A DNA stretch of 52,541 bases, the filler included, from Jimgerdemannia flammicorona (lineage: Eukaryota), in the NCBI GenBank assembly GCA_003990765.1. It is 2 parts of 2 records of this genome, joined end to end, with 100 filler letters (N's around TTAATTAATTAA, not from the genome) between each part and the next. Parts side by side here need not be neighbours in the genome. Positions count along the whole stretch, not along the records: positions 26,322 to 52,541 come from RBNJ01000751.1; 1 more part is not named here. One strand, given 5' to 3'. Positions 19,478-52,523 of the stretch are shown here, piece by piece (the first letter of the stretch is position 1; the number at the start of each line of letters is the position of its first letter). A program made the position numbers and the translations under genes. The notes under the pieces are model-generated. The model saw only the letters and a list, made by a program, of their open reading frames with translations, made no database searches and had not been told where the DNA came from.

Positions 19478-19557
<80 letters not shown>

Positions 19558-23269: not shown

Positions 23270-23279
23270 AATGAAGTAT

Positions 23280-26211: not shown

Positions 26212-26221
26212 TTTTTTTTTT

Positions 26222-27875: not shown

Positions 27876-30800
27876 CAGGACCATCACTCTTCCTGCCAAG
27901 GAAATGTATCAACTGCCCCACTATATAAGTACATCCCCCCATACCAGGAGTCGCTGTTCCCACTAAGCATGAGGAAGGAGAGATCTATATACAGATGATA
28001 TAGTTGTTGGACTGAGTTCATTGGTAGATGTGAAGGAGTTACAGCAGACTGTGGAATGGTATGAGAGGAGCTCTGGTGTCAGACTCAACTGGCACAAATG
28101 CGAGACTATGGTGTTGGGTAGAGGAATTGTTGGTGGTGATATGATTGGGATAGTGGTGCCAGCAGGGGAGCCTGTTTGCTATCTGGGGATCTACTTCTCA
28201 TCCAAACCCCCAATTTGATAACTGATCCTATTCAATAGGGGCTCCGAGGAAAGTGCATACAAGATGAGTGACAAAGAATCCCCCTGTGGCACCCTGTAAT
28301 CTAGAGGAAAGGTGCCACCCCTGTATCCATTGACCACTAGGGCCACCTGACTGTCCTTCAAAAGACTGATTAATGACCTCTGAAACCCTGGTGAAACACC
28401 CATCTGCTTCAGCACCCCTTTTAGCCAAATCCTCCGCACTCTATCATATGCCTTCTCCTGATCCAGAAACACTAGTCAGCCATCAACCCCAGTAGCTCGA
28501 GCCCCTTCAATCACTCCATGAACCCAGGCTGTCCCATCACATATCAACTGACCACTAACAAAACCTCTCTGCTCAACTCCCAGCACTTGCAGAGTAATCC
28601 CCTACAGCCTGGTCACCAAGATCTTCATAACCAGCTTGCAGTCCATGTCAAGGAGCATGATTGGATGTCAGTTCTTTCAATCTTCCCTCTGTCCCTTATC
28701 CTTAAAGAGTAAAGAGACCAGCCCTAGATGCTGGCCTCCAATCCAAGTTCCAGACTGAAGGACCTCATCACACATCCCTGTCAACTCCTCCAACACTACC
28801 TCCACCCTGGCCATCTTTTTCCAAAAATCCCAGGGAAGCCCCTCCTCTCCCAGGGCTGTCCCCTTGCTAGTTGTAGCCAGGACCTTGCACACCTCCTCCC
28901 CTCTCACTCAGTCCCTCAGAGCCTCTAGACCTATTGCTGGGTTTAGATGCCAACCATCCAACTGCCGTTCAATGTCCAAGGCATCTCCACCCCCTCCTTC
29001 CTCACTCCATAAGTCCTCTCAGTGGGACCTTAGCAATCCCAAAATCACTGGAGTCCCCACCACCATCTCTCCATCCTCATCCAAGATGCCATCCCACTGC
29101 TACTTAGTTCTCCATGCTTGTAATATCTATGATAAAAACTGAGTGGGTTGTTCCTCTTCCTCCAACCCTTGCCACCTCAACCTTGCCACCATCCCCTTCA
29201 ATTTAGCCTCTTCCTCCAATTGTAACACCTCCTGAAGTTCCCTGACCTCCTTCTGAATCCTTGCAATATACCAGTCTACCACCTCTCTACCTTCTAGCAC
29301 TCCTGCCCATCTCTCCAAGAGCATCTCCAGCTACTGTGAGGCCCAGCACACCCTCTGCTGCTGCTGAGCCCTCCTCTCTTTCCCTGCCTCCCTCCAATAT
29401 CCCTGAGCACTTGATTTCAGCCTCCTCCAACAATCTCCTATTGCCATTCCCTGCTCCTGCTATCAACCGATTTTTCCAACAACCTCTGTCTCCCAGGCAG
29501 CCCATAAATTGCTATCCTCCAACAATGAGGAATTGAGCTGCCAATGTCCAGGCCCATCCCTGCTTCCCCTGAACCTCTCCCCCCCAAGCAGACCCCAGTG
29601 GTCAGACAATGGGCACTACACCATCTCCAGCTTGGCCCAGACATCCACTCCCCAATATTCTGCCATTAGTATCCAGTTGATTCTCAAGCCCAGTCCAGCC
29701 ATCCAGTGAGTATAAATTTGATGATTCTCTCAGAACTGTCTCTCTGAGTCCACCAGGGAGCTCAACCTCTTCATCTCCATTCAACTCTCTAATCTGCCAC
29801 TTCATCCCTTCATCCCCCTCCCACTGTCAGTCTGGTCCACTATATTATCTCTTACCATATTGAAATTCCCCCCCAGGCAATCAATTTCAGCCTCAATTAT
29901 GGCACCAGCCTCTTGCAAATTCCTGATCTAGTCTACCTGCTCTCCACTCTCTGCTAGGCAGTAACATGACCCTACTATCAGAGGGCTCCAACCAGGTCTC
30001 TTCCACCCCCCCCCCAATGTCCAATATCACCAATGTCCCCCATCCCCTTCTGCACTAAGATACCCACTCACCCAAACCACACTACTACACCCCCCCACTC
30101 CCTAGTCCAATCCTGAAAGTCCACTTCTGCTTTGTAATATACATCCTGCAGTAAAAAGAGATCTACATCTAGCCCCTTGAGCCAACCAAATATGAACTTC
30201 CATTGAGCTGCCCCCCTCAACCCATTCATATTCAAAGAGAATATTCTAGTTGTATTGTTCATAATGAATAATGTTTTAATGTTATAATCCAGCCTAGTAT
30301 TCTGTGCTCATCTCATCCCCAGCCAGATCCAATCACTGCTCTGCTTCCAAGTCCCCCTCTACTGCAACCTGAGCATCCAATGCCTCTAAGATTTCCTGAC
30401 ATTCCACTCCATCCACCACTTCTATCTCTGCCCAATAGTCAGTGCAGACTACTCTCCACTTCTCCAATCCCTTCCTTGATCCCCACAAGTAAGCAGCCCT
30501 GTCATTTGTAATCTCCTGGAGTTCCTTCTCTCTCTGATCATCGACCTAATACTCAACTGATTCCAATAGTACTGCCAGGATCTCATTCCTAACCTTCCTC
30601 GGCATCTCCTCCCCATGAAGGATTTCCTCCCAATGCTGTTCCTCCATAACCTGGAAGTCCTCTCCCTCCAGCTCCTCTGTTGCCACCCCTTCCAGCATCT
30701 TCCACAGCCTCTTCTCCTCATCTACTGCCTCTGCCATACTCTGGGTGACTTGACCATCCCCCACCCTCAGGTCCACCAGAGCACTCCTCCTCACTGACTC

Positions 30801-32290
30801 ATCCCACTCCTCATCTGAGACATCCAATAACTCCTCCTCACCCCCTGCCCCCCCTGGGTCACTATACTGAGGTGGAACTCCTTTACTCATCTCCATATCC
30901 ACTTCCACACCACCCTGCTCCTCCTTCCTTAGTCGATTCTGGGCTCCACCTTTTGCCCTCTCCCTTCCCCCTGCCCAGTCACTCATATACAATCCTGCTC
31001 TCTCATCTCCTATACTGCTGCCAGCCCCACCACCCCCCAACTTTGCCAGCAGCTCCTGCTGGTTTCTCCTCTCTTGTATCTTCTCCCAGATCACCTTATC
31101 CACCCTGGTCCTCTTCCACTCAATGACTTCCACCACCATCTTCACTTCATACTCCTGCCAAGCCAATCTCCTCCTCTCAATTGCCTCCTCCAGATCCTTG
31201 AGAGTCTTGAGCAAATCTTTCTCCTCTTCCAGAGTCCCCTTCACTTGCATGACCTTGCACTCTACTGTTCCCCACTTTAGAGTCACTGGTCAATTCCACA
31301 TCTTTCTTGTGTTCTCCTTTCTAGTCAGCTGTACCTGGACATCAATGTCACCAGTCTGGAGTTCTGTTCCTTTGTAGACCTTGAACCCAATGTCCACAAT
31401 CTCCCCATACTCCTTGACTGCCCCCACAATCAACTCTCTGGCCCTCTCCCTCAACACCATAGTGAGATCCAACACCATCAACTATACTACTTGGGGGTCC
31501 CAATGCATGCACCAGGCCATAGGGACCACAATAATGCCCACTATCACCCCCTTCTCCATGGTAGCCAACAATGTCCCCTCTTCCTCAAATCCCACCTCTA
31601 CTCTCTCTTTCCCCTTCAAAAACTTTACCAACACTACTCCCTTTGCCTCCTGCACCACTAGCCCTAAGATCATCCTTGCAGTCACCACTAAGCCTCTGAA
31701 GCACATCATGATGGTGAATTCCAACCTTGATTTCTTGAGTAACAGTGCCAACACCATGCCTCTCACCCCATCTGCCAGGTCTCCAGGCCTTGTGCCTACC
31801 CTCCATCCTGATCCATCAATCACTATCATATCTGGATTTTTTTCCAGATCCCCAGTCACCGCCCCATCAGCAGTCACAACACCAGCCCCTACTCCCCCCC
31901 CTCCCCTACCACCAGATGCTCCCTTGGGCACTCCTCCCTGACCCCCAGTGATAGCTGTCAATGCCTTCTCTAGGCCCAGTCAGCCATCCAGACCCAAGGC
32001 CATCCTCCTCATCTTGACCTTGTCAGCAAAGGTCGACCTCTCCCCTCCTTGCTGCCTCAAGTCACCCCTCCCTCCACTACCAGTGCCTTGGCCAGCCATT
32101 GAGGCCCCCTACATCTCCAAACCATCTTCTCTCCTTCCTATCAATTGCCAGCTAAAGGCACCACCACTCCCCTGACCAGTATGCTCACCAGATTGATCAT
32201 TGCCATCTATTGTGATAGTTGTCTGTCACCAAAAAAATTGAGAAAAGTGTTGTCTGAGTCTTGTATAACCTGAATGATACTGTCCACTAG
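27876..32290 (-). mobile_element. L1/Tx1-like LINE copy e (ORF1 ~30270-32206; ORF2 from 30262), 3'-truncated, with an internal inversion
   Basis: MNNTTRIFSLNMNGL; FLDQEKAYDRV; VPQGDSLS; 5' UTR resembles that of LINE c. Confidence 0.88.
27991..28200 (+). other. Inverted RT segment within LINE e
   Basis: TDDIVVGL...LNWHKCETM...YLGIYFS on the + strand, between minus-strand flanks that encode the preceding and following ORF2 segments. Confidence 0.85.
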
Positions 32291-33204: not shown

Positions 33205-33630
33205 TAGACATTACTCTTAAGGTCAAGAAGCTTCACCCTGAAGCCAAGATCCCAGAATACAAGACTGAAGAAGCTATAGGAATGAACCTTACCAGTATTT
33301 AAGATGCTATCCTCAAACCACAGACCACTACTCTACTTGACACTGGAATTGGAGTCAAGCTGCCAGAGAACTATACCAGAATTATCAAGACTAGGAGCAG
33401 TCTGGCTAAAAGCGAAATCCCAGTTGAAGGAGGAGTAATTGACCCTAATAATACTGATGAGATCTTCCTCATAGTCAGGAATCACAACCCCACCACCCCA
33501 TTTGAAGTCAAGAAGTATAACAGGATTGGACAGATGCTGATCCACAAAGTTAAGAAGCCCAAGATCACTGAAGCCATTGAACTTATCAAGACTAAGAGAA
33601 GTGAACAAGGCTTTAGATCTACTGGAAGAG
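33205..33630 (+). pseudogene. dUTPase domain of C
   Basis: LKVKKLHPEAKIP...TGIGVKLP...TRSSLAK..VEGGVIDP...RIGQML...RSEQGFRSTG. Confidence 0.9.
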
Positions 33631-36383
33631 GAGCCTATGCTACCACTAAGATTACTGAACTTGAGTACAAGAAAGACAAGGACCAGAATAAGTACACATA
33701 TACTATTGGAGAAAAATTTCTCCTAGAACAATATCTCAAGATCCTGTATTAGAATAAAGAAGTACTAACTATAGACTTCAGAGATATCTACAATCAAGAA
33801 CCCAAGTACTACTATAAAGTTAACACTAATAATACCAAGCCCATCTACCAGAAACCCAGACCTATACCACCTGTCTATAGAGAATGGCTGTGAGCAGAAC
33901 TCAAGGAAATGAAAGAAGCTGGAATTATCATACAAGCTATTAGCCCCTGGGTCTCACTTATTGTCCTTGTACCAAAGAAAGGATACAAGCCTGGAGAGTT
34001 TGCTCTAAGACTCTGTATTGATTACAGGAAGCTCAATGCAATTATCAAGAAGAATAGGCAGCCCTTGCCAAATATTCAAGAAATCTTTACCACTCTTGAA
34101 AGTAAAGCCAAATACTACACTATCTTGGATCTGTTCTCAGGCTTTCATCAGATTGGTCTCACTCAAGATACTAGTCAAAAATTAGCCTTCATCATATCTG
34201 ACACTACTTATGTTTACCTGCAAATACTATTTAGAATATATAATGTCCCAGCAAGTTTTCAGCAAATGATAAATGGAGTCTTTAGCAATAAGATTAGAAA
34301 ATGGCTCTTTGTCTATATTGATGATATGATCATCTTCAGCAATACTATATGGGAATATATCAACCATATACAGCTATGTAGCTCTCAAGAAGCTCAAGGA
34401 GCATGGCCTCGATATTAAGCCCAAGAGGTACAAGTTTGTAGCTCAGGAAATCACCTACCTAGAACACATCATCAACCAGACTGAAATTTACACAGACCCC
34501 AGATTGAGACTGTTGCAGCCTACCCAAGACTCAGAATAACTACAGAAGTCCACACCTTCCTTGAACTGGCCTCCTACTACAGTAGATTCATCAAAAGATA
34601 CTTTAATATTATAGTACCTATCTACAAGCTACTGAAGAAGACAACAAAATTTAAATAGACTAAGAAATATTAAGAAATCTTCAATAAACTCAAGACCAGG
34701 TTGACCCAAGCACCCATCCTCAGAAGACCAGATTGGAACCTAGAGTTCATCCTGCAGACAGATATAAGTATTATAAGACTTAGAGTAGTCCTAGCTCAGA
34801 AGAAAGATGGACATAAATATGTCATCTCCTATATAAGCTGAGATATCTATAGAGTAGAACAGAACTATGAGTAATGCAAGCTTGAATGCTCAGCAGTAGT
34901 TTAGACAGTAGATAAGTTCCACTACTACCTAGCTGAGAAATACTTCACTATCTAAACAAACTATTCCACTCTCACCTAACTATTCTACACTCTGAACTCC
35001 AAAGAAATATATGCTAGTTAGATCTACAGACTGTAAGAGTATGACTGTACTGTCAAGTACTGCTCAGGAAGAATCAATGCCAATACTGATACACTCTCAA
35101 GGATACTCTGAAATATTCCCATCAAGACTATTCAATATAAATAAGGAGCTATACTATGGATTAATCAGCTACCTTAGGCAGTGGAAGATGCCCAACTACT
35201 TCAAACCCTGGACTTCACTATTATCAACTAGACTTGAAAAAAATTTGAACTAGACAACACCATACTCAGAAAAGGTAGAAAGCTCATAATACCCAAATAC
35301 AAGAAGTATTAGGTAATGAAGAAAGCATATAAACAAGGACACCTTGAAGGAATCAATATATGACAAAGTAAGCAGAACTATGTAGTGGCCTAAGATAGAT
35401 GAAGACTGTGCCAATTTGTCAAAGGGTGTGACAAGTACTAAAAACAGAAACAAAATCAATAAGACCAGATATCTGGGTCATCAAGAATTGAGTCTATCCC
35501 CTTTTATCATATTGTAATAGATATCATTGGACCACTATCAGTAACACTATCAGGAAACTATTATATTATAGTTATCATAGACCTCTTTACTAAATAAATA
35601 GAAGTAAGAGTATTACAAGTATTCAATGCTCTCTTTATAGCCAACTTCCTGTACCAAGAAATCATCTGCTGTTACAAGATACTAAGACAAATCACTACAG
35701 ACTACAGTACAGAATTTATCAATAGATTCTATGAGATAATGTATTAGAAATATAAGATTCAGCATATCAAAACTACTGCATATCACTCTTAAGAAAATAG
35801 ACAGATAGGAAAAATCAATAAGACTCTCAAGAACATTCTGACAAAGATCTCAGACACATATGATAATTGGGATAACTATCTCCCAACTGCCCTCTCTGTC
35901 CTACAAGATATATAGTCACAGAGTATGTACTTTACCCCAAGAGAACTGCTCTTCAGAGAAGAAGATTCCAATGAAACCTCAGCTATAAATCTAGATCTAA
36001 CTTGGAGAAAGATTGACTCAGAAATCTGGAGACTACACCAAATCAGAAAGAAGACTGAAGATATATCATCAAGTCATAAGTGCTGATAAGGAAGAATGTA
36101 AAAAAGAATTACAAGACCCTAGAACTCATCCAAATTGAAGAAAAGGTCCTACTGTATCAAAATATAGTAGAAGTCTTATAGTTGCAAAAACTGGAGCCCA
36201 AATAGGAAGGACCCTTCTATATGTAAGATATCAAGAGAACTATCTTCTGGCTTAGAAAACTCTTAGTAACTATACTGCCCACCATAATATATAGGAATAG
36301 ACTCAAGAAGTACCATGAACCGATATAAGAGAAGTAAAATATAATGATCACTCATGAGATTTTAGTCCACAAATCATAACAAT

Positions 36384-38155: not shown

Positions 38156-38272
38156 CTAGGTATTATGAGATATTACTAAAGATTTATCTAAGAATACTTT
38201 ATTATCATAGCCTTACTGATTAGTCTGATCTACAAAGGAGTAAACATCAAGACTAAATAGACCCCTGAGTAT
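38156..38272 (+). mobile_element. Gypsy B2 RT C-terminal piece (left flank of the A insertion)
   Basis: Matches the reverse complement of ~8920-9035; continues at 48701. Confidence 0.85.
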
Positions 38273-38949
38273 TGTAAGAGGGTTGCTTTTTAGGGTAACC
38301 ATTACATAGTTCCGGAAAGGTTTTCTGGAAGTTCTAGATATTCTGGAAGACCATTTTCTTTATGGTCAAGATCAATTTCATATAGAGTATATCCTCTATG
38401 CTTATTGATTTCAAGATCAGGTTGACATCTCAACCAAAGTCCTTCTTCAGACTAGTTCTGGATGTTCAGGAATTCTGTATTTCAGGAAGTTCAAGAAACT
38501 AAGACCAGCTCAGTTGAATTGGCATATCGCTGTAGACAATACCCAATTAGGAAATTTCATGATGGGGTTAGGAGTAGGACCTAACGGGGAGTGGATTTAC
38601 TTAAGAGTGGTTTGTAGGTTATTTGAATGAGTTTATTTGCTATTCATGATATTGCTATACTAGGAGTAGTTGTGTGAAGGGATATTGTGGGGAAGTATTC
38701 AGGAATGTTCTTGTGTGTTCGAGTCTGAGATTCTGAGGTCTGGGGGTGGGGGTATTTATACTAGTGAGGGGCTATCTGAACTATGCTGAATATGGATGTA
38801 GCACTAAGTGCTTTGCTGAGTCAGAATGCAGTCACATAGTACAAGTGTGATCTGACATGTCAAAAGATCGTCTGGCTGCTGAGTCAGTTCACAGTCATGT
38901 TATATAAGGCTAATCTAACTATACTATGACTGCTAGGTTATTTATGAGT

Positions 38950-40047
38950 TTAGGCACTATCTGGGTAGTCCTTGATGACATCACTATTGATTGCATCATC
39001 TCTGATGAAGTAGTCATTCAGGAAAAGTGGTTCGCAGATTACTTCTTCTTGTTCACTGAAGTAATAATATATTGGAACTTCATCTCCATCCCACAAGATG
39101 GCATCATCTGTCTCATATACTGGATAAGGTGTTGGTGGGTGAAGGAGGGGTGCTTCATCTTCACTTTCATCGGATTTGCTGTCTGCATACCTTCTGTAGA
39201 TTACAGCACTATGAGTCACAGGGTTGTAGTAAGCTGGTGGCTGTAGTTCATATTGCTTGTACTAAGGTGGTGGAGTGGTTGGTTCAATCTCGAGGGTTGT
39301 CTGGAGGTACAGGTTGTGTTCTCTGGTCTCTTCATTGTAGTTGAAGTAATCAGGAGTGAATGTGGGTTAGTATTTGTGCCAGTGGTCATTGTCCCAATAA
39401 GTCTCATATGCCATTATGAATTGTTGTAAGTTCATTAGCAAGGTTGGTAGTGTGATCAGGGTTGGCAGAGATCCTTGGCTAGAGGTCATGTCAACATCAG
39501 AGAGATCATTGTCTTCTGCTTCATCTTCATCAAAGTAGATTATATCATAGATGTCCTTTATGGTATATCCAACTTGGGGCATTTGCAGGATATGATCATT
39601 GGGGTATGGGAAGGTTCTGTCTGTGGTTTTGATATACTCGAGGTACTTGTGGTTGAGTTCTTGTATCATATTATTGATTTGGCCATAGGACAGGGTAGCA
39701 ACCATTTCGCTGGTGGTAACTTGGAGGTGGGAAATAATGGTACTGTACTCATAGAAGAGTTCTCAATGTTTGCTGGCAATGAGCTTCTGGTGTTGAGACA
39801 TCTAGGTAATGTCTGTATCATGGTGGTGTTCAACCATGTCTTCCAGGAGGCAGCCAATCTGGTAGTAGCTTGAGATTTGTCCGATTTGGTGGGCCTTGCT
39901 AAGCATGTTCAGAGCATTCCATCAGGCTTCCATGAAGTAGAGGGGTGCTAGGCTATGGATATTCATGAGGGGTAGAGGGGGTGTGGCTCTGTTGACAATG
40001 GCATTCCAAATGTCAGTTCAGATACGGGTATAGATCTTGGTAGTCAT
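38950..40047 (-). pseudogene. LTR-encoded accessory ORF of A (365 aa), 3' LTR copy
   Basis: ORF-track pieces 39367-39705 and 38950-39219 are in frame with ATG 40047; the stop at 39367 is a sense codon in the other LTR. Confidence 0.8.
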
Positions 40048-40239
40048 GTTTGTATATTTGTAAGTTGTGGTTGTTGTTTGTTTTGGTTCTCTGATTTGAC
40101 ATGTCTTGGTGCTCGGTATATATGCATTTGGTCCTGATTGGTAAGATTCCGTTTGTGTAGATCTTGTGTTCTGTGATTTCATATTGACTCAGCTTTGTGT
40201 GCTGTGACTTTGGTTTGACTCAGCTTTATGATTAAGCAG

Positions 40240-40318
40240 GTGATTTCCAGATTTGTTCAGAGGTCGTGTGTGATTTCAGTGGCTTGTTCAGAGGGTGATG
40301 TGTAATTTCAGTGGCTTG
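40240..40318. repeat. Imperfect ~31-bp tandem repeat (about 2.5 copies) at the U3 start of the A LTR
   Basis: GTGATTTCAGTGGCTTGTTCAGAGG-like units; also at 48600-48678. Confidence 0.7.
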
Positions 40319-40335
40319 GGGGTTGTGCGCTTACA

Positions 40336-40349
40336 ACTCTCCCCTTCTT
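40336..40349 (-). other. Polypurine tract of A
   Basis: AAGAAGGGGAGAGT abutting the 3' LTR. Confidence 0.88.
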
Positions 40350-43300
40350 AGCTTTCGATGTCCTTGTCAGGGCCTTCTAATTTGTTCAGTGGTACAGGGA
40401 AAATAGGCTTGCTTTCTGTTTTGCCATTTTTCCAGAGGATCGGTATTCTTGTCTTGTTTTGCTGAGTTCTTGGTTTGGTTCGCAATAATTATAATGTTTG
40501 GGAGGATAATATATAGTATGTACCGATAGGTGCGAGAGTATTTGGTTCTTAGTTGTTTAAGGAATCATATTCCTGAACTAGGTCGGTAGCATTCTGGAGA
40601 TTGGTCTTCAGTTCCCAGGTTGCATCATGGATTGGATAACCTTTCCATTTGACAAGGTACTCAGGGTGGCTTTTGTTGCCATGTTTGTTGAGGATTTATT
40701 CAACTTCGTACTCTTCTTGATCATTAATAATGACAGGTGCAGGTAGTTTGGTAGTCCAGTTTGGAAATAGCTCATCATCATTCTCATTGTATCACTTGAG
40801 ACATTGAACATTAAAGACCGGGTGAATCTTAATGGTATCTGGTAGTGCCAATTTGTAGGAGGTTGGAGAGACTTATGCAATGACTTCAAATGGTCCAATG
40901 AATTTGCTGTTCAGCTTTGTGGATGGTCTATGCTTGAGGTTGTCAACTTAGTATCCTCTGATGTCCAGAAGAACATTTTCTCCAATATCAAAAGTTTCTT
41001 CTCGGCAGTGTTGGTTAACATACTGTGACTGTTGTTCTTGAGTTCATGATATATTCTCAATGGCAATCTGGCTTAGATTGTGCATTTGGAGTAAGAATTC
41101 TTCAACAGCTTCTACTGTGGAGGGTTCCTCAGTGGTTCAGATAAGTGTCAAAGGGGTGTTTGGGTTTTGTCCAGTGTTGGCGAAGAATGGGGTCATTCCG
41201 AGAGAGGCTTGCTTGCTATTGTTATAGGCAAACTCAACTGTAGTGAGGTGTTTATGCCAGTCATCTTGTCTATAGGAAACATAGTTCCTTAGCATTTGTT
41301 CCAGAGTTTGGTTCATTCTTTCAGTTTGGCCATCAGTTTCTGGGTGAAAGGCTGTGGATAGTACAAATTTTGTTCCAAGATGTGCATGGAGGGCTTTCCA
41401 AAAATGGCTGGTGAATTTTGGGTCTTGGTCACTAACAATGATCTTGGGAAGACCATAATAGTGGAAGATGTTATCAAACAAGAGTGTGGCTATGTCTGGT
41501 GCTGTTGCAATAGTGGTAGTAGGCACAAAGTGGGCTTGTTTGCTAAGATAGTCTATAAAGACAACAATTGCATCTTTCCCATTCTTGGTTCAGGGTAGTT
41601 GTACAATGAAGTCCATAGAGAATTGTTCCCAATTAGCAGATGGTACTGGGATAGGGTGAAGTAAGCCAGGTTTTGCTAGTGTTGAGGACTTGTTTTGTTG
41701 GCAGACATCACAGGAAGTAATGTAGGTTTTGAGCTGATCTGCCATGTGGGGCCAATAGAAGTTTCGAGAGATAACTTCATAACATTTATCAAATCCTAAA
41801 TGTCCAGCTGTAGGAGCATCATGACATTTGAATAAGATAGTCCTTTGGAGGTCTCGGTTGTTTGGGACATACAGTCTGTCTTTATAGTAGATAGCATTGT
41901 CCTTCAGTTGGTATTGATGATACTGTGTATACTTGTCAGCATTATCACTATTCAGGAATTCTTGCAGTGCTTGAGCTGCCTTATCATCGGCACATGCTGT
42001 GATAATTTGTTCTATGATGGAGTTTGTAACCAAGGTGAGAGTTTGGATAACCTCTTTGATTGGTGGTCTGGAGATTGCATCAGCAATAATTTTTTCCTTA
42101 CCAGGGCAGTACTGGATTTCATAGTCAAAGTTGGTGAGGACTTTCATCCATCTGGCTTACTTTCAAGAAAGGGTAGCCTGTGTCTTGATGTTGACTAATG
42201 ACTTGTAGTTGGTCAATACAGTAAAGTGAGTAGGGTTGCCATTTGATCAGAGTATCTACAATGGCTAGCATCTCCTTCTCATGAGTTGCATAGTTGATTT
42301 TGGCATCATTGAACTTGTGGAAGTGATAGGCCACAGGGTGTCCTTCTTGTATGAGTACTGCTCTAAGGGCTAGGTCAGAGACATTAGTGGTAACTTCATA
42401 TAGTAGTGCAGGGTTTGCCACTTGAAGTACTGGAGTGGTTATCAGGGCATCCTTTAGTGCTTGAAAGGCGGTATCTTACTCAGGTCCCCAAGTTACAAGA
42501 TTGTTGAAATCTTTCTCTTGTTTTATAGTCCAGGGTTGTTCTTGTTTCTTGCTATGGTTGGTCATTTGGGTGAGAGCAGTAGCAATTTTAGCAAAGTTGG
42601 CAACAAATCGCCTGTAATAGTTTGCTAATCCCAGGAATGACTGGAGGTCTTTCAGCTTCTTGGGTCTGGGCCAATCCTTGATTGCAGAGATTTTGCTGGG
42701 GTCTACTTTAATTCCATTTGGAGTGATAATGTGTCTAAGGAATTGAATTTCTTTCAGAAGAAATTCACACTTACTGAGTTTTGCAAAGAGTCGGTTTTCT
42801 CGGAGTTTCAGTAATACTAGTTCAAGGTGTTCAAGATGTTCCTCCAGGGTTTTGCTGAAGACTAGGATGTCGTCAATGTAGACAACAATGAATTTGTCCA
42901 GGTATGGATGCAGAATGGTATTCATTAATGTCTGGAAGGTTTCTGGAGCATTAGTTAAGCCGAAGGGCATAACCAGGAACTTGAAGTGTCCATAGCAAGT
43001 TTGGAAAGCTGTCTTGTAGATATCTTCTTCTTTCATAGCAATTTGCCAGTAACCATTTCGCAGATCAAAGGAGCTCATGAATTGTGGGTTGGTAAGTCTA
43101 TCGAATATTTCATCGATCCTCAGTAGTGGGCAACAGTTCTTGATAGTCTGTTCATTGAGATTGCAGTAGTCAATGCATATTTACAGGTCTCCTCCTTTCT
43201 TGACAACAAATAGGACTGGTGCACCATAAGGTGATACACTGGGTCTGATGAATTCTTATTCTAGGAGTTCATCAATTTCTTGCTTGAGTGCATCGATTTC

Positions 43301-44039
43301 TCTCAGAGACATGTGGTAGATTGACTTGAAGGCTGGTTTGGCATCTGGGATAGTCTTGATGACATGGTCTACTACTCATTTAGGGGATAGGCCTTTCAGG
43401 AGCTTCTTTGGGAATATATCTCGAAATTTCTAGAGTAATGGTCTGACACAGTTGTTAACTTTGGAAAAATCCTCTTCAGAATTCTCAGGTTCTCCTTTGG
43501 ATAGGCGGATAGAGATGGCGAAGAGTGGGCATTTCTTGGCCAATTTCTTAAATTGTAGCTTATTGATGTGGGTGATCTTTGGTCCAGGGTCACCAGAATT
43601 AAGTGGGTCTTTTTCGCCTTGCAGTTTGAAGTTGTGGCATCCCTTCTTGATGGTCAGAGAATGGTTTACCCAATCAATCATGGGGTTCTCTTGTTTTAAC
43701 CATGGAGTTCCAAGGATGATTTTATTGTCAGGAAGTGGTACGATTTGAAGGGTAACATATACTCGGTAGTCAACAATTCGGAGGGGTAGATTGCAAACTT
43801 CTTTGCTAATAACATGTGAGGTTCCATCAGCTGTAGCAACTGCTTGAGTTTGCTGTACTGGAGAGGTAAAGACCTTGAGTCTGTTGGCTGTCTCTTCATT
43901 GATGAAGTTGCCTGAGGCACTACTATCTATCATAATCTTGACAGGTGCTTGGTTGACAAAAGCCTTAAGTGTGAGCAGTTTGTCTGATCCAATGGTGGTA
44001 ATTTCAGTTGTGGGAGCTTTCCTTCTGTTGGTTCTTCTT

Positions 44040-44170
44040 TGAGCCAGTTCATTGATACAAAAGAAGCAATCATCAATCTTTCGGGAAGAGTACATTCCAA
44101 TGCCATGGGGACATCAGCCACTTGGTACATATCCATCTTCGATTTTCTTGTAGAATTGTTCTTCTTTGCT
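44040..44170 (-). other. C-P-H-x12-C-x2-C module in A (between dUTPase and protease)
   Basis: EEQFYKKIEDGYVPSG*CPHGIGMYSSRKIDDCFFC. Confidence 0.75.
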
Positions 44171-44189
44171 CATGGTAGGTTGGGCTGGG

Positions 44190-44605
44190 GCCTTGTTGGA
44201 TGAGCCAAATCCTTTGGATCCTCTGATGGTGGGCAATAGTTCAGGGACTTCCTTGACTATCAGAGTTGACTCAATTTTTTTGAATAGGATCTGGGCAATG
44301 CAGAAACCAATAGGGATCTTGAAGGGTGTCCAACTGTGGTTTCGGATGAGGACAATAATTTCGCCTATGTAATCCTCGTCAATGACTCCTCCTTCTACTG
44401 AGAGTCCTTTCAATGCTAGGCTGTTGCGAAAGCATATTCTTCCAACATGTCCTTCAGGGATTTGGATGCTGATTCCTGTGTAGACTTGTTTGACTTCTTT
44501 GTTGGAAACTGTAGCTTCTTCGGCTGCATACAGGTCATATCCAGCTGCTTTCTGACTTCCTTTGGTTGGGGCCTTAGCAGTTTGTCTTAACTTGACAATG
44601 TCCAG
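44190..44605 (-). pseudogene. dUTPase domain of A (uninterrupted reading frame)
   Basis: AAGYDLY, RNSLAL, GGVIDEDYIGEI, IAQIL and RGSKGFGSS in ORF 44114-44698. Confidence 0.95.
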
Positions 44606-46617
44606 TATTCTGGTAGTCAGATTATTGAGGTGGTGCAGAGTGGTAACAGTTGCTCTTGTTGCTGTCCATGGTTTTTGGTTAGAGCAGGCACTGGCCATGT
44701 GTCCTGTCTTTCAGCAGTAGAAGCATTCTCCACTTCTTTGAAGTTCATTCCTTTCACTCTCAGTAAGTTTCTTGAAGGTACTTGGCTGGGTAGGTTTATG
44801 ATTTCTGAGTGTCCAAGAGGTGGATGTAGAGGGAGCTCAGGATGCTTCATGCTTGGGTTCTTCTTTCTTGATCCAAGTCTTTTCCTTGTTGTTGAATTGT
44901 CTTCGGGGCAGAATTGGTCCAGCTGTTAGGATTCGCTTGACCATAGTCTTGATTCTTGCCAGGCACTATTGTTGGTGGTCGCAACCAACTGGGTGGCCTT
45001 GTTCTCGGATTTTTCTAGTAAGCCATTCAGGCAGGGCATTGAATAAGTGGTCTGCTCTTGTACCATTTTGTGCTTCATCATTGGCAATATATCCTAGGCC
45101 AACAGTATTCAGGAGTGACTTAAGTTTTGTACAGAAGGTTTCGAATTCTTCTTTGCCATGTACATTAAATTTGCGGTTGTGGAGTTTTACTCGAGATTTA
45201 GCAATCATGGTTTCACTACAGTATTGAGCAATCATGAGTTGTTTGAGTCCAGGGGCTGCAGGATGGGCTCCATATCCTAGGGCATTGTTTGCTGTATTCT
45301 GAGCAACTACTGCAGGTCGGGTATCCTATGTGAGGGGTTTTTCAGAAAGAGTTCACCACCATTCTTCAGCAGGTCCTTGAAAGAATGTAACAACTCAGCG
45401 GATATAGGCTGTAGTGATAGCAAAGAGTTGTTCCAGAGTGTGGTCTTGATTGTTTGTCAGAATGCAGTCAGCAACTTGCTCATTAGTCCATTGATTGGCT
45501 TTGAAGTTGGTGTCAACTACACTAATGAAGCTTTGGACTTCTTGTGCAGTACCATTGAAGGTAGGTAGGCTCAGATTTTTGGTAGGTCAGGTCTGTTCAG
45601 CTAAGGCAGTAATGGTTGCTGCCATTATAGCTACTTGGGCTATGAGATTAAGAATCTGTTGGTTTACCATGTTATTTGCTGGAGGTGGTTAGACTGCTGG
45701 TAGTAGTGTTACTGGTACTACTTGAGGTACTGGTGCAGAGTGTGATGGGGTTCTTTGGGTCTGTGTAAGTTGCTAGAGTAGTAGTTGTGGATCTGGAGTA
45801 AGGGCTTGATAGATAGCTGTTTGTTATTGTGTAGGTATATTCTGTCCTGATGGGAGTGTATCTCCTTCTGTGGTATATCTGGGATCGAATTCAGTGAGAT
45901 ACTCCTCCTCCTCTTCAGTTTGGTCCTCATGTAATTGGGTTTGCTTGGCATCAAAGTAGACAGAATCAGTTATATATCTGATTTCGGAGGGACTTAATTC
46001 AAAGTCAAGTTCAGGTTTGGTATTAGTTTTGAAATCAGGTAGGGCTGTAGCAGGGCCTACTTCAGGTTCAGGGTTGGGTAGTTGATGAAGGGTTTCTCTT
46101 GCTTCTTCTTTAAGAATATGGTGGGCCTTGCTGTTCTGGAATCAGTAGTATAATGCAGTCTTGGTCCTAGTATGGTGAAAGTCAGTAGAGTTGAGCCACT
46201 TGGCTACAGAGGCTTGGGCTTCATGAGGAACTAAGGCTAGGAAGACTGCTGCTGGTTGTCCTAGGTCACTCGGATTTGTGGAGCTGACAAAACTCTTGTT
46301 GAGAAGAGTAAAGAAGGCTTCAATAAGACCTTCTTCATCTTGACTTGCTGGGTATAGTGCAAGGAGTTTGGTGAATAGGGTTTCACCTATTTGCTAATTT
46401 AACCAGAGTACTTCTTTCTTTGAATGAAGTTTATCCCACTTATTGCAGGTGTGGAGGTCAAAATGTCCTTGTACATCAGGTTCAATTCTCTCCAGATTGT
46501 CAGATGGTTCAGGATAAATTCCAGTTCAGAGGTTGGGCTTTATACCAACTTATAGGAATTCTCAGAAGGGTTTGTAGTGGGGTGAGGAAGCATCTTGAAG
46601 CAGAATTGGATTGTAAA

Positions 46618-46629
46618 CCACTGCTACCA
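46618..46629 (-). other. Primer-binding site of A, tRNA-iMet-like
   Basis: TGGTAGCAGTGG starting 3 nt inside the 5' LTR. Confidence 0.7.
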
Positions 46630-46632
46630 AGT

Positions 46633-48695
46633 TGTAAGAGGGTTGCTTTTTAGGGTAACTGTTACGTAGTTCTGGAAAGGTTTTCTGGAAGTTCTGGATA
46701 TTCTGGAAGACCATTTTCTTTATGGTCAAGATCAATTTCATATGGAGTATGTCCTCTATGCTTATTGATTTCAAGATCAGGTTGACGTCTCAACCAAAGT
46801 CCTTCTTCGGACTAGTTCTGGATGTTCAGGATTTCCGTATTTCAGGAAGTTCAAGAAACTAAGACCAGCTCAGTTGAATTGGCATATCGCTACAGACAAT
46901 ACCCAATTAGGAAATTTCGTGATGGGGTTAGGAGTAGGACCTAATGGGGAGTGGATTTACTTAAGGGTGGTTTGTGGGTTATTTGAATAGGTTTATTCAC
47001 TATTCATGATATTGCTATACTAGGAGTAGTTGTGTAAAGGGATATTGTGGGGAAGTATTCAAGAATGTTCTTTTATATTCAAGTCTGAGATTCTGAGGTC
47101 TGGGGGTGGGGGTATTTATACTAGTGAGGGGCTATCTGGACTATGCTGAATATGGATATAGTACTAAGTGCTTTGCTGAGTCGGAATGCAGTCACATAGT
47201 ACAAGTGTGATCTGACATTTCAAAAGAGCATCTGGCTGCTGAGTCAGTTCACAGTCACATCATACAAGGCTAATCTAACTATACTATGACTGCTAGGCTA
47301 TTTATGAGTTTAGGCACTATCTGGGTAGTCCTCGATGATATCACCATCGATTGCATCATCTCTGATGAAGTAGTCATCCAGGAAAAGTGGTTTGCGGATT
47401 ACTTCTCCTTGTTCACTGAGGTAATAATACATTGGAACTTTGTCTCCATCCCACAAGATGGCATCATCTGTCTCATATACTGGATAAGGTATTGGTGGGC
47501 AAAGGAGGGGTGCTTCATCTTCACTTTTATTGGATTTGTTGTCTGCATACCTTCTGTAGGTTACAGCACTATGAGTCATAGGGTTGTAGTAAGCTGGTGG
47601 CTGTGGTTCATGTCACTCGTACTCAGGTGGTAGAGTGGTTGGTTCAATCTTGAGGGTTGTCTGGAGGTACAGATTGTGTTCTCCGGTCTCTTTATTGTAG
47701 TTGAAGTAATCAGGGGTAAATGCGGGTTGGTATTCGTGCTAGTGGTCATTGTCCCAATAAGTCTTGTATGCTATTATGAATTGTTGTAAGTTCATTGGCA
47801 AGATTGGTGGTGTGATCAGGGTTGGCAGAAATCCTTGGCTAGAGGTCATGTCGGCATCAGAGGGATCATTGTCTTCTGCTTCATCTTCATTGAAGTGAAT
47901 TATATCATAGATATCCTTTATGGTATATCCAACTTGGGGCATTTGCAGAATATGATTGTTGGGGTGTGGGAAGGTTCTGTCTGTGGTTTTGACGTACTCG
48001 AGGTACTTGTGGTTGAGTTCTTGTATCATGTCATCAATTTGGCCATAGGACAGGGTAGCAACCATTTCACTAGTAATAACTCAGAGGCGGGGAATAATGG
48101 TACTGTACTCGTAGAAGAGTTCTCGATGTTTGCAGGTGATGAGCTTCTGGTGTTGAGACATCTGGGTAATGTCTGTATCATGGTGGTGTTCAACCATGTC
48201 TTCCAGGAGGCAGCTGATCTGGTAGTAGCTTGAGATTTGTCTGATTCAGTGGGCCTTGCTAAGTATGTTCAGAGCATTCCATCAGGCTTCCACGAAGTAG
48301 AGGGGTGCTAGACTATGGATATTCATGAGGGGTAGAGGGGGTGTGGCTCCATTGACAATGGCATTCCAAATATTGACACGGATATAGGTATAGATCTTGG
48401 TGGTCATATTTGTGTGTTTGTAAGTTGTGGTTGTTGTTTGTTTTGGTTCTCTGATTCGATACATCTCAGTGCTCAGTATATATGCATTTGGTCCTGATTG
48501 GTAAGATTCCGTTTGTGTAGATCTTGTATTCTGTGACTTCGTATTGACTTAGCTTTGTGTACTGTAACTTTGGTTTGACTCAGCTTCATAATCAAGCAGG
48601 TGATTTTCAGATTTGTTCAGAGGTCATGTGTGATTCCAGTGGCTTGTTCAGGGGGTGACATGTAATTTCAGTGGCTTGGGGGTTGTGTGCTTACA
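46633..48695 (-). repeat. 5' LTR of A (2063 bp)
   Basis: Direct repeat of 38273-40335. Confidence 0.97.
47310..48407 (-). pseudogene. LTR-encoded accessory ORF of A, 5' LTR copy
   Basis: ORF-track pieces 48282-48464, 47739-48065 and 47310-47579 share one frame. Confidence 0.8.
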
Positions 48696-51600
48696 AGTAT
48701 ACTCAGACTATAAATTTTCTCAAAAGACCCCTTACTGAGACTTTTGTACTAATTATATACTACTCTACTAGGTCTCTCACTTTGATCATAGATGTCTCTA
48801 ATATTGTCCCTTAAGTAGTACTTAGCCAAGAAGATTACTCAGTGGCCTATCTCTCCCAGAAGCTTAAGCCAGCTAAGACCCAGTATTCTATTTATGAGAT
48901 AAAACTCCTGGTCATTATTACTGTACTCTAAAAATAGTATTACTTTCTCTTAGGATAATTATTTGTAGTCTATACTAATTACTATACTCTGTGGTATATT
49001 TATATATAGCTCATACTAACTTATAAGCAAGTCCATTAGATGGAAATTATTGCCTCCTTTAATATAAAAATCATATATATTCCAGACAAAACCAACCATG
49101 TGGCTGATGCTTTCTCCAGATATATATAGAATTAGCTTGTCTTTATAATCAAAGTAATTGATAATATTACATCAGATTATCAAGAATAGCTACTAACAAG
49201 ATAGTCTCCTATTGAAATTCCTTCAACTCTATCAAGACCCTGAGGTTGAGGTCCCAGAACCTATTAAAAGGATGATCAAAAGATTTATATATCATGATAG
49301 ACTCATCAATAGAAGATTATAACAGAGTGGTAGTATTCAAAGATAATACTCTATAACTTAAGATAATGCAGAAACTCTATGATACTCCTGTAGCAGAATA
49401 CTTTAGTTTCAAGAAGACCTATAATCTTCTCTCAAGAGAGTTCTACTAGACAAGGAGGATCAAAGATATCAAATCTTTTATAGTTTCATATGAAATATTC
49501 CAAAGATTCAAGAGTAGTAACAAACTATTAGTAGGACTTCTGTAACCTTGGCCAATCTCTAGCTATAATTGGGATCAAATTATAATAAACTTCATTGTCT
49601 AGCTCTTTAAGACCAAGGTAGAATAAGATGCCATCATAGTATTTATAGACTGTCTGAGTACATAAGTCTACTTTATATCTAGTAAAAATCACTGCTACAA
49701 TTTCTGAGATTGCTAAAATCTTTCTCAACCAAGTATTTAGACTATATAGCATATCTACATATGTACTATTATATCTGACTGAAGTGCCAAGTTTACAAGC
49801 AACTTTCAGAAGATATTTTTCTCTCTATATAATATCAAACTGAAGTTTTTCACTACCTACTACCTCTAGACAGATGGTCAGACTGAGTGAATCAATAGAA
49901 CTCTCAAGTAGATACTCAGTATCTTCTACTGTTATAAGTAAAATAATTAGAATAAGTCTCTGGTATATATTAAGTCCTACAATAATAGCTAGCAAACCTC
50001 TATAAAGAAGATCTCATTCTTTCTAAATTATGATCAATACCCAAAGACTCTAAGTACTACTGCAAAATCAGTAGTTCTAGCAGTTCAGAACTTGGCTAAG
50101 ACCATTTCTGATCTTACACAAATGACAAGAGATACTCTTATAGAAGTGTAAAACTATTAGACAAAGTATACAAACTTGAAGTAAAGAGAAATATTCTATA
50201 ATAATAGTAATATAGTTATACTCAGAACAGACTACCTCTATCTAGATAGTCTAGCCTAGTAACTATCTAAGAAACTCTGTATTAGAAGAATTAGACTATT
50301 TATATAAGATTGTGGAAAAAGTCAATAAAGATAACTATAAGCTATAACTCTCTTATAATATTTGAGTTTACTTAGTATTTCATATCAGTCAACTGGTAGA
50401 CTACTATGTAAATATATTTTCTGAGTATATAGTATCACCACCACCCCCAATTAGGATCAATAATCATGAGAAATTTAAAAACAAGAAGGTGCTTGACTAT
50501 AAGATCTGCAAATATACTAAAACAGTTAAGTGGTTTTTCCTCATCAAGTAGAAGAGTTATCCTACTTATGATACTATTAGGAAAAAGAAAGAAGTACTGA
50601 AAAATATACATACAGTTCTTTAGAACTATATGGAAACACTCACTCCATAGTAGAGAAAGGAATGCAGCTCTAAACTTAGAGGTTATAGTAAACATAATAA
50701 TAATATATATTTATCTGAAATATATAATATTAAACATTAAGAGAATAGGAATACTATAATTAGCCAATAAGATAAAAAGATTATTCTATTAAAGAACTTT
50801 TTCAGATCTCTTATATATAGTTAAATCAGAAAGACCATTCAAACTAATATAATATATAATAACTATACTGGTATATCAGTGGCCACAGAAAGACATCTAG
50901 TTGTATTTGAATTCTCAGTCTGTAGCCTGGAGAACAATGTCTTAACAGAGTGACCAACTCTCCATCTAAAGTCAAAGAAGGATATTTCAAACCAGTAATA
51001 CTCAGTATTTTCCATATAACTAACACATACTTTATGTATAGCAATAGATCTTATATTTCTTTCAAAATAAAGTCACACCAGATTGGTGAAGAAATATAAA
51101 TACCTAGGATAAGAATACACTACAATCTCTATCTTCTTTTTCTCTTTCTAAAGAAAAATAATATAAGAATACCTACTATCTGCCACCAAATAGCCTGCCA
51201 TAGCCAGCCCTTTCTAAGCCAGATTGACCACCTTTTTAGACACATCCAGGTCACTATTCAAGGAAGAAACCACTGCTCTAAGACTCTTAATCTCACTAGC
51301 TAGAATCTAGAATACTATATCCTCAACTACTATAAAGTTATTAATAGGGTCTATCTTACTACCAGCTATCTAGAAATCTGATATGAATACAAAATTAGAT
51401 ACTAACTTCTCTAATGAGTATAAGATCAAACTGCTGACCAAGTTATAGACTAAATCCACTTAGATAGATATGAGTAAAGACTAGCCAAAAAGGTTTACCA
51501 AATTATATAGTATATATCTTTTATAATCTCCAACCTCAACTATGTATAACTGAAGAACTTCTAGAATCTTATCTTCTCTGAGATCAATGTACTAGAGATC

Positions 51601-52523
51601 AAGATTGCTAAAGAAGTCCTCTCCTAGATCACTCTTAAGTTTTCTAATTATAAACTGTTCTCTCTTGAATGACAACTTAGACCAATGGCTCTAAGGCCTT
51701 TCTGATCTCTTTGAAGAACTACCCATCTGAATAGATATTCTCAGATATGACTAGCAAGTCTTCTACCTAGATGGTCCCAACTGTATTAGATGGAGGACCT
51801 CTATACCACTATCTGCAGATACTTAAGAACTATTTACAGACCTCTATATTTTATACTGAGCCATCAGCAACTACCCCTCTAATAACTGATTGTGAAGGTA
51901 ACTGTAATGAGATATAAAGGATGCCACAACTCCTCCCTTAGTTCTCAACTTTCAAATCAATATAAATTTTGATTTTTAAGAGGTGAAGAATATAATAGAA
52001 TAAACAAATAAGATATAATGAGTGATCACATAATCTAGCAATAATGTGGCATATAATAAATATAATAAATAAGATATAAAAAATATAGATAAAATGATAT
52101 TCAACTTATCTCTAGTAACTGGTACTATAGCAATCACTATAGCAACTGATTATTATCTAATAGTTTATAGTATAAAGGTTTTAATTATAAAGATCATCTA
52201 TAGTTACCAAATTAGTCACTCATACTTAGTCAGAAATTATGAACTAACTTGTATAAATACTGCTAATATTTCATTTGAAATAAAGTAGTTTTGGTTCAGT
52301 TCTTAATATATAAATCAAGTCTTCTCTCTATATACACATATTTCCCTAACTTTTAATAATGACACCTAAGTAACTCTAGTGATCTGACTAAACTTTAAAA
52401 GCCTAGCTAACTTTTACCAGAACTAAGACTAATATATAATTCCCAAAGACTTAAGAAAAGCCTCTTATTGAATCTAAATTTCAAGGAAAATTTAGTCTGT
52501 GCACAGTAAATAATAAGTCTCTT
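48696..52523 (+). mobile_element. Gypsy B2 continued (RH-IN-chromodomain, accessory ORF, PPT, partial 3' LTR from 51991), heavily decayed
   Basis: Colinear with the reverse complement of B1 ~8920-4920; very TpA-rich. Confidence 0.88.
51169..51979 (+). pseudogene. B2 3' accessory ORF
   Basis: Nucleotide homology to 5490-6311; ATG decayed to ATA; TAA abuts the PPT. Confidence 0.7.

Follow-up and report, generated by a model that had tools for sequence, protein, structure and literature searches.

Genes embedded in long terminal repeats (LTRs) are known from a few retroviruses and are unusual for Ty3/Gypsy elements. To our knowledge, MMTV is the only textbook case in which an entire gene lies within the LTR; its sag product is a membrane glycoprotein. 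Lentiviral nef and foamy-virus bel/bet overlap the 3′ U3 as well, yet they begin upstream of the LTR. A literature search on LTR ORFs returned papers on MMTV almost exclusively. Within the chromoviruses, a gag-pol ORF that extends into the 3′ LTR is described for the CRM clade and for some elements of Beta vulgaris (PMC3059260, PMC3605345). Extra ORFs described between the LTRs are ORF0 of Retrosat2, RIRE3 and RIRE8 (PMC3485330), ORF3 of the bdelloid elements Vesta, Juno and TelKA (PMC5408684) and an 'add. ORF' of fungal chromoviruses (PMC2864245). The two latter sources also report dUTPase-bearing Ty3/Gypsy elements from fungi and rotifers (PMC2864245, PMC5408684).

The window analysed here is a stretch of 52,541 nucleotides (filler included) from Jimgerdemannia flammicorona. 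It contains Element A, a nested and dead chromovirus (Ty3/Gypsy, Metaviridae) on the minus strand. A blastn self-match of the window revealed two direct repeats (38272-40336 and 46632-48696) which delimit the LTRs and align gap-free over 2,065 nt at 92.2% identity. The features of the element, all on the minus strand, are given below; LTRs are taken from the self-match, short motifs were read in the sequence and domains were assigned by Pfam on translations with stops written as X.

48696..48700, minus strand: target-site duplication ATACT (5 bp), upstream copy
46633..48695, minus strand: 5′ LTR, 2,063 bp, TG..CA ends
46618..46629, minus strand: PBS-like 12-mer, TGG-initial, 3 nt past the 5′ LTR
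40350..46617, minus strand: internal region
within the internal region, minus strand: gag with CCHC
about 44198-44578, minus strand: dUTPase
about 43640-43987, minus strand: PR
about 42737-43123, minus strand: RT
about 42230-42490, minus strand: RNase H
about 41341-41859, minus strand: INT zinc finger and core
about 40564-40710, minus strand: chromodomain
40337..40349, minus strand: polypurine tract AAGAAGGGGAGAG, 1 base ahead of the 3′ LTR
38273..40335, minus strand: 3′ LTR, 2,063 bp, TG..CA ends
38268..38272, minus strand: target-site duplication ATACT (5 bp), downstream copy

The Pfam order RVP_2, RVT_1, RT_RNaseH_2, Integrase_H2C2, rve corresponds to PR-RT-RNase H-INT, with one frameshift in the internal region listed between RNase H and INT. 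The chromodomain (PF00385 Chromo, E 4.6e-14) follows SH3_Tf2-1 at the integrase C-terminus. With paired TG..CA LTRs, target duplication, domain order and C-terminal chromodomain all present, Element A is a chromovirus. No tRNA was matched by the PBS-like 12-mer, and Rfam and tRNA scans of the window gave no match. The neighbour clusters of the reverse transcriptase in the Atlas are labelled plant and arthropod.

Each LTR carries a long ORF, hereafter the LTR gene, which had been described in the initial annotation as lying in both 2-kb LTRs, filling over half of each, running sense to gag-pol and ending about 190 nt upstream of the LTR TATA. All of this was borne out: the ORF spans LTR nt 289-1386, thus 1,098 of 2,063 nt (53%), its first codon lies 288 nt inside the LTR, and a TATAAA follows 190 nt past the stop in both copies. 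It opens with the earliest in-frame ATG that the two LTRs have in common, with A at -3; upstream of LTR nt 148 the frame is closed by a stop common to both. The antisense ORFs of 93-115 aa that overlie the gene were regarded as a consequence of the sense frame.

47310..48407, minus strand: LTR gene, 5′-LTR copy, 365 codons and stop, 5 internal stops (codons 42, 54, 109, 223, 265)
38950..40047, minus strand: LTR gene, 3′-LTR copy, 365 codons and stop, 6 internal stops (codons 10, 42, 82, 95, 227, 262)
47310..48065, minus strand: homologue-supported core (codons 115-365), 5′-LTR copy, 61% identity to P0003
38950..39705, minus strand: homologue-supported core (codons 115-365), 3′-LTR copy, 60% identity to P0003

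The gene lies inside the LTR because it is located downstream of the polypurine tract, and it is therefore duplicated, reverse transcription placing copies at both ends of the insertion. Like sag, it is a complete sense ORF within the LTR, past the polypurine tract and ahead of the LTR promoter (here a candidate recognized by its motif), and it is present in both LTRs. There is, however, no sequence relation, and in contrast to Sag its product has no Pfam family and no hydrophobic segment, while Element A is a Ty3/Gypsy chromovirus without env. As in nef and bel/bet, an accessory coding sequence would here share nucleotides with the 3′-terminal U3 of the genome; those genes only overlap the LTR, whereas the present ORF starts inside it, shows no homology to them and lacks the N-terminal Gly. 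Membership in the chromovirus group and coding sequence past the polypurine tract are shared with the CRM-type elements, but there the integrase tail (CR motif or chromodomain) reads into the LTR, whereas in Element A a separate, complete ORF has its own ATG. Gag-pol read-through of the CRM type was considered for Element A and rejected, as the chromodomain ends about 215 nt upstream of the polypurine tract and is followed by stops. The internal extra ORFs, as described, resemble the LTR gene in being lineage-specific, fast-evolving, often orphan, sense to gag-pol and obscure in role; contrary to the LTR gene they lie between the LTRs and are not duplicated in consequence. Furthermore, no enzyme or transmembrane signature of the kind considered for such ORFs is present in the LTR gene product. 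The dUTPase-bearing elements of fungi and rotifers share with Element A a dUTPase in the polyprotein and a chromodomain integrase, a likeness of the backbone which has no bearing on the LTR gene.

We consider it probable that Element A is a dead chromovirus whose lineage carried an extra protein-coding gene inside the LTR, probably in U3, which encoded an acidic accessory protein and decayed after insertion. The main external evidence is an intact protein of 247 aa (P0003), which matches codons 115-364 of the LTR gene at 61% identity and 80% similarity. Its start Met and its end coincide with those of the matching segment, the alignment contains two in-frame gaps of 2 residues each, and at each of the four places where a stop interrupts the core P0003 has an ordinary residue. 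P0003 is the only relative found; its cluster has 1 member, from a single 998-bp contig. A homologue search of 5.8 billion proteins returned 1 match near this length, 0 shorter and 0 longer, and a search of 1.84 billion protein representatives returned only P0003 itself. Pattern matches in metagenome, viral and genome contigs (145, 115 and 137, respectively) yielded 0 confirmed related loci, and a 21-mer that includes the LTR TATA box had no exact match in the metagenome contigs. In the window, tblastn with P0003 matched the two LTR copies only, and therefore no other element in it has the gene.

The predicted product has a mass of roughly 42 kDa and a pI of about 4-4.6 and is rich in Tyr and Pro. 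An acidic, Pro/Tyr-rich C-terminal part had been noted before, and the C-terminal third indeed has a pI of 4.2, its 125 residues including 15 Pro and 13 Tyr. There is no membrane segment (maximum 19-residue Kyte-Doolittle mean 1.0-1.1) and no Gly at position 2 for N-terminal myristoylation. Neither a Pfam family (E up to 1 or 10) nor a PDB sequence (E up to 10) was matched, and homology to Sag or Nef was likewise not found in these searches. AlphaFold2 on a 3-row alignment gave no confident fold (mean pLDDT 33), and the Atlas model (pLDDT 0.39) matched unrelated bacterial proteins at a TM of no more than 0.30. Since membrane segment, signal, known domain and confident fold are all absent, the product would be classed as an accessory protein rather than an envelope; an env-like reading was rejected for want of a hydrophobic stretch and of any Pfam match. 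A PPxY late domain was also rejected as a conserved feature, there being two such motifs per window copy and none in P0003.

This orphan character, namely one homologue in sets of 5.8 and 1.84 billion proteins, no Pfam family and no PDB relative, is what would be expected if a host or foreign coding piece had been picked up by the LTR through transduction or recombination and amplified without role or selection; cases of gene capture are on record for retroelements (PMC4299795, PMC5408684). Such passive capture is nevertheless unlikely. Codon usage and per-position composition of the ORF match those of Element A's own gag-pol instead of a foreign pattern. Moreover, the relative keeps the whole frame, start and stop at 61% identity, while in simulations of unconstrained drift to that identity the frame was still open in only 6 and 8 of 1,000 runs, thus in less than 1%. 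As weak evidence in the same direction, no longer host-like protein containing the LTR gene was found.

Three motifs bear on whether the gene belongs to U3 or to R.

47115-47120 (5′ LTR) and 38755..38760 (3′ LTR), minus strand: TATAAA at LTR position 1576, identical in both LTRs, candidate promoter
46992-46997 (5′ LTR) and 38632..38637 (3′ LTR), minus strand: AATAAA at LTR position 1699, identical in both LTRs, candidate poly(A) signal and end of R
48476-48483 (5′ LTR) and 40116..40123 (3′ LTR), minus strand: TATA-like run at LTR 213-220, about 70 nt ahead of the first ATG

If TATAAA is the LTR promoter, all sequence upstream of it is U3. The gene lies upstream of the TATAAA/AATAAA pair and hence is most likely located in U3, where it would form the 3′-terminal cistron of the genomic RNA. 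The TATA-like run, whose position about 70 nt upstream of the ATG agrees with the earlier description, allows a different assignment, in which the genomic RNA starts at LTR about 214-245 and a real gene lies in R, as a 5′ leader gene before gag which would recur at the RNA 3′ end. Besides the spacing of this run from the first common in-frame ATG with its A at -3, it is in keeping with such a leader that the sole AATAAA common to both LTRs lies past the ORF, and that ORF0/ORF1 genes stand upstream of gag in some plant Ty3/Gypsy elements, among them ORF0 of Retrosat2, RIRE3 and RIRE8 (PMC3485330). We regard this placement as quite improbable, as a canonical TATAAA is present in both LTRs 123 nt before AATAAA, a distance that is customary where R is short. 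We are aware of no precedent for an R of about 1.5 kb that holds a 365-codon ORF ahead of gag, and an ORF in that position would be expected to hinder translation of gag.

The frame itself contains a run of 323 codons without stops common to both LTRs, whereas the remaining two sense frames have 32 and 51 common stops per 687 codons. By arithmetic from the stop rates of these frames the chance of such a run is about 2e-9, and about 2e-6 with the rate of the same frame outside the ORF (13 common stops per 321 codons). A codon-usage log-odds score trained on Element A's own gag-pol, for which the two LTRs are non-independent samples, favours, in each LTR, the ORF frame in 16/17 scoring windows wholly within the 365 codons versus 6/12 outside. 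The signal for this frame is significant in codons 1-114 (p ~1e-6) and in codons 115-365 (p ~1e-15) and in neither flank (p 0.1-0.4), so that gag-pol-like codon usage within the LTR is confined, with sharp edges, to the stretch from the first ATG to the stop. In codons 115-365 the per-position base composition is near that of gag-pol. Stops make up 1.4-1.6% of the codons of the LTR gene versus 1.28% in gag-pol (21 stops in 1,640 coding codons counted). That there is no gene, and the long frame is a by-product of A/C-rich LTR composition and of stop counting, would fit the fact that all copies in the window are broken with one stop common to both, but is very improbable given the common stops in the other frames of equal composition, the frame-specific codon signal with edges at ATG and stop, and the intact collinear homologue. 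To judge from the sequence, the homologue, the codon-usage framing and decay equal to that of gag-pol identify the LTR gene as a genuine protein-coding frame, broken in both LTRs. Its predicted length of 365 codons rests on frame and codon usage; the homologue adds to this for the last 251 codons only, since P0003 starts at the position of Met115, and codon statistics are what supports the first 114.

The stops had been understood in the initial annotation as complementary, one break in each copy, and as pointing to an open ancestor. The readings D-H-W-H-K-Y-stop (3′ LTR) and D-H-stop-H-E-Y-Q (5′ LTR) are exact, but the stops number six and five, respectively. They occupy 10 distinct codons, nine of which are private to one LTR, and seven of these nine differ from the sister-LTR codon by transitions only. 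An open ancestor is thus mostly supported, apart from codon 42, which is a stop in both LTRs and requires parallel CpG mutation in the two LTRs or a copy broken before insertion. The former is plausible since the CpG pair classes of the two LTRs show near-saturated decay; on the latter view, this copy of Element A may have inserted with its gene broken beforehand. Between the LTRs 154 transitions stand against 7 transversions. Within the gene the differences fall 46/21/29 on codon positions 1/2/3, as expected of neutral decay since insertion; two LTRs alone cannot pass a dN/dS or codon-position test.

According to the proposed explanation, an ancestor of Element A would have carried the extra gene downstream of the polypurine tract within the LTR, each new insertion would have received it at both ends by reverse transcription, and both copies would then have decayed by transition and CpG mutation at the rate of gag-pol. 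A short transcript that begins within the 5′ portion of U3 and ends at the LTR's own poly(A) signal may have served to make the protein, or else a subgenomic RNA. It would presumably have served the element, e.g. by handling RNA or particles or by countering host silencing, rather than a host function. A more far-reaching version, in which a complete and selected gene with its own promoter in U3 gives two copies per full-length element, makes solo LTRs potential genes and encodes an acidic disordered protein acting for the element, so that a sag-like design evolved independently in Metaviridae, is at present doubtful.

Accessory genes set 'complex' retroviruses apart from simple retroelements. 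If a Ty3/Gypsy chromovirus, like MMTV, carries a whole gene within its LTR, LTR-embedded genes would be a solution that recurs rather than a peculiarity of retroviruses, and the LTRs of this family, including solo LTRs, would be possible protein-coding loci instead of promoters alone. They would supply an abundant orphan protein, disordered and acidic, with a role in element-host conflict that is open to testing. With one relative among billions of predicted proteins, the gene also illustrates how LTR genes full of stops can be missed in annotation. Fragments of the Element A family number many hundreds to thousands in the sequencing runs, which suggests, under the more far-reaching version above, a very high copy number of the gene. 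The runs examined consist of contigs and showed no transcript ends, and one run leaves most of Element A uncovered. Among the 40 viewed of 2,156 variable places from 4 sequencing runs, 2 lie in the LTR gene and 0 at its stop codons.

Self-comparison of the window reveals a single pair of long repeats in direct orientation (38272-40336 and 46632-48696), 92.2% identical over 2,065 nt without a gap, which form the LTRs of element A:

46633-48695, minus strand: 5′ LTR of element A, 2,063 bp, TG..CA ends after trimming
38273-40335, minus strand: 3′ LTR of element A, 2,063 bp, TG..CA ends after trimming

The five bases ATACT are present at both outer LTR ends, a 13-nt polypurine tract lies one base ahead of the lower-coordinate LTR and a TGG-initial 12-mer three bases past the higher-coordinate LTR. 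The interior (6.3 kb, minus strand), translated with stops as X for domain calls, harbors gag with a CCHC knuckle, dUTPase (E 3.6e-31), aspartic protease, RT and RNase H in this order, followed after one frameshift by the integrase zinc finger and core, a Tf2-type SH3 domain and a chromodomain. Judged by this domain set and its order on the minus strand, element A is a chromovirus (Ty3/Gypsy). Its coding damage amounts to 21 stops in the 1,640 codons counted and the one frameshift; the element is dead. The host of the insertion is an older element, whose two halves (38171-38271 and 48718-52523) match 4910-9020 collinearly in the reverse direction, with 70-78% identity, and thus the window contains two diverged copies of this older retroelement family.

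Each LTR carries a frame of 365 codons and a stop (40047 to 38950 and 48407 to 47310), sense to gag-pol and located exactly as proposed in the initial annotation. With 53% it occupies the claimed share of over half of the LTR, and the peptides quoted around the complementary stops match the sequence exactly. While the complementary stops themselves are real, the extent of the damage had been understated: six internal stops are found in the 3′ copy and five in the 5′ copy, at ten distinct codons, nine of which are private, each to a single LTR, while one (codon 42) is common to both. Both copies in the window are therefore broken.

The core claim, a protein gene embedded in both LTRs of element A, is upheld by four lines of evidence, by which the frame is a gene beyond chance. 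Stops common to both LTRs were taken as the approximate state at insertion. The LTR-gene frame contains a run of 323 codons without any common stop, whereas the other two sense frames show 32 and 51 common stops per 687 codons and the antisense frames 21-41. By our own arithmetic, the chance of such a run is about 1e-9 at the stop rates of the other frames and about 2e-6 if the rate is taken from the parts of this frame beyond the ORF (13 in 321 codons). A codon log-odds score, trained on gag-pol of element A against its off-frames with stop codons left out, turns in favor of the LTR-gene frame at LTR nt about 241-301 and off at about 1381; these switch points coincide with the ATG and stop codon of the 365-codon frame. 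In each LTR this frame scores best in 16 of the 17 windows wholly within the ORF versus 6 of 12 outside. The contrast in codon score is significant in codons 1-114 (p about 1e-6) as well as in codons 115-365 (p about 1e-15), and neither flank of the gene shows it; as copies of one sequence, the two LTRs were treated as a single observation in this test. The stop density of the LTR gene (1.4-1.6%) equals that of gag-pol (1.28%), as would follow from both having been intact when inserted and having decayed together since.

Several open frames are also found opposite the gene:

38926-39246, plus strand: ORF antisense to the LTR gene (3′ LTR)
39592-39873, plus strand: ORF antisense to the LTR gene (3′ LTR)
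47286-47633, plus strand: ORF antisense to the LTR gene (5′ LTR)
47952-48233, plus strand: ORF antisense to the LTR gene (5′ LTR)

They encode 93-115 aa, and one antisense frame shows runs of 171 and 147 codons without common stops. Most likely, these ORFs are a by-product of codon choice in the sense frame.

Among 5.8 billion predicted proteins a single relative was found, P0003, an intact protein of 247 aa from a 998-bp contig. It shares 61% identity and 80% similarity with codons 115-364 of the LTR gene, its start being aligned with Met115 and its end being the same, with two in-frame gaps of two residues. At all four stop positions of the window copies within the aligned part, P0003 has ordinary residues. 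In a simple drift simulation run to 61% identity, the frame stayed open in 6 and 8 of 1,000 runs. External support thus exists for the last 251 codons, while the case for the first 114 is made by the codon-usage signal and by the presence of only one common stop among them. P0003 starts at Met115, but its contig is only 998 bp long, and a decayed upstream part would yield the same gene call. The better reading is to take 365 codons as the preferred extent of the gene and 251 as the safe minimum.

The encoded protein would have about 42 kDa at 365 codons, compared to 29 kDa for P0003. Both are acidic (pI 4.0-4.6) and contain 8-9% Tyr, 7-10% Pro and 15-19% Asp plus Glu. The C-terminal third of the LTR-gene protein has a pI of 4.2, and its 125 residues include 15 Pro and 13 Tyr, in line with the acidic, Pro/Tyr-rich C-terminal half noted initially. 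Neither protein has a hydrophobic stretch, a basic cluster or a Gly2, and P0003 is devoid of Cys. No Pfam family and no PDB chain matched the LTR-gene protein at E up to 10; AlphaFold2 gave a pLDDT of 33 with every residue below 50, and the Atlas model a pLDDT of 0.39. The PPxY late motif was discarded as a conserved trait, two being present in the window copies and none being kept in P0003. The LTR-gene protein is not an envelope protein. Our guess is that it may be an accessory factor serving element A, which would be made from a short or subgenomic RNA ending at the LTR poly(A) signal.

The gene lies wholly past the polypurine tract and hence inside the LTR by definition. In both copies TATAAA is found at LTR position 1576, 190 nt past the stop codon as the initial annotation had it, followed 123 nt later by AATAAA at 1699, the only AATAAA common to both copies. 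This motif layout suggests that the gene is part of a U3 of about 1.6 kb, followed by about 110-130 nt of R and about 340 nt of U5. The second TATA-like run reported about 70 nt ahead of the ATG is present as well, and transcription starting there would place the gene in a very long R, which we regard as rather improbable. The gene is thus likely to be located in U3. The further proposal that solo LTRs could act as expression cassettes with a promoter of their own is hypothetical.

Between the two LTRs there are 161 differences, 154 of them transitions and 7 transversions, and no indel. CpG reaches an observed/expected ratio of 0.20-0.30 in the LTRs, compared to 0.086 for the window as a whole. 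Among aligned dinucleotides, CG is retained in both LTRs at only 3 sites, CG is opposed to TG or CA at 33 and TG to CA at 19; CpG decay in the LTRs is near saturation. By symmetry with the TG/CA sites, a similar number of parallel same-strand hits should have occurred, which can no longer be seen. Transitions alone separate seven of the nine private stops from the sense codon in the sister LTR. As the common stop at codon 42 is of the type that a parallel CpG hit gives, the proposed open ancestor is still compatible with the data; equally compatible is a copy already broken at insertion. Within the ORF, 46, 21 and 29 differences fall on codon positions 1, 2 and 3, respectively, and they are not less frequent there (96 in 1,095 nt) than outside (65 in 970 nt). 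These differences within one insertion are neutral decay after insertion and are silent on selection in the active lineage.

Part of the LTR is present in nine public runs, whose labels are for the most part soil metagenome, along with two coded organisms. Four of the nine, all consisting of contigs and showing no molecule ends, were mapped to element A at 80% likeness and yielded 8,576, 1,037, 887 and 441 contig pieces, mostly 90-99% alike and differing mainly by transitions. Given so many near-alike pieces, the family of element A is highly repeated wherever it is present. In run X9, guessed to be RNA and from a different coded organism, the element A interior is almost without cover; close to one end of a 9,601-letter contig (record 26), at a distance of about 155 letters, lies a piece with 81% likeness to the gene's C-terminal half (39139-39348). 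Going by this likeness, the contig is a first pointer to a related element outside this organism. The top contig depth in all four runs is observed in a block of about 155 nt directly after the AATAAA (LTR about 1705-1864; 38472-38631 and 46832-46991). Contigs stop at the same two edges of this block (loose ends at 38631/38632, 38473, 46832 and 46986), which gives the block the appearance of a module that other repeats share or that is conserved outside the element A family.

Full-text literature searching for ORFs located in LTRs yielded nearly exclusively papers on MMTV sag, which the LTR gene resembles by position but not by sequence, topology or host element. By the same three measures, it belongs neither to the sag family nor to any other named family. 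No description of a complete, separate ORF inside a Ty3/Gypsy LTR was found in the literature covered, outside of which most subscription journals lie, so that this is not proof of absence. In CRM-clade chromoviruses (PMC3059260) and in some beet chromoviruses (PMC3605345), gag-pol continues in frame into the 3′ LTR, an orphan ORF0 lies upstream of gag in Retrosat2, RIRE3 and RIRE8 (PMC3485330), varied ORF3s occur in bdelloid elements (PMC5408684), and fungal chromoviruses contain a dUTPase and, according to a figure legend, an 'additional ORF' (PMC2864245).

Elsewhere in the window, a second pair of direct repeats (4726-5473 and 13028-13749; 748 nt, 87.3% identical) surrounds about 9 kb with minus-strand ORFs resembling protease and RT. 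The region 4726-13749 is probably a further full-length LTR element, in which tblastn found no relative of the LTR gene. At 33303-34415 (plus strand) a further dUTPase (E 8e-17) precedes an RT fragment; together they are the remnant of another dUTPase-bearing retroelement. No tRNA or Rfam family was found in the 52.5-kb window. Window-wide CpG depletion is extreme, with TpG and CpA in excess, and is consistent with a landscape made up purely of transposons that has long been decaying through methylation. Runs of 44 N at 26222-26265 and 26278-26321, in a repeat-rich stretch, were read as masked or unassembled. At 1-4000 and 14000-32000 the strands are very strongly asymmetric, the plus strand being C-rich and G-poor (GC skew -0.35 to -0.53), and these skewed regions contain many long plus-strand ORFs without a Pfam family, for example 16085-17098 (338 aa).
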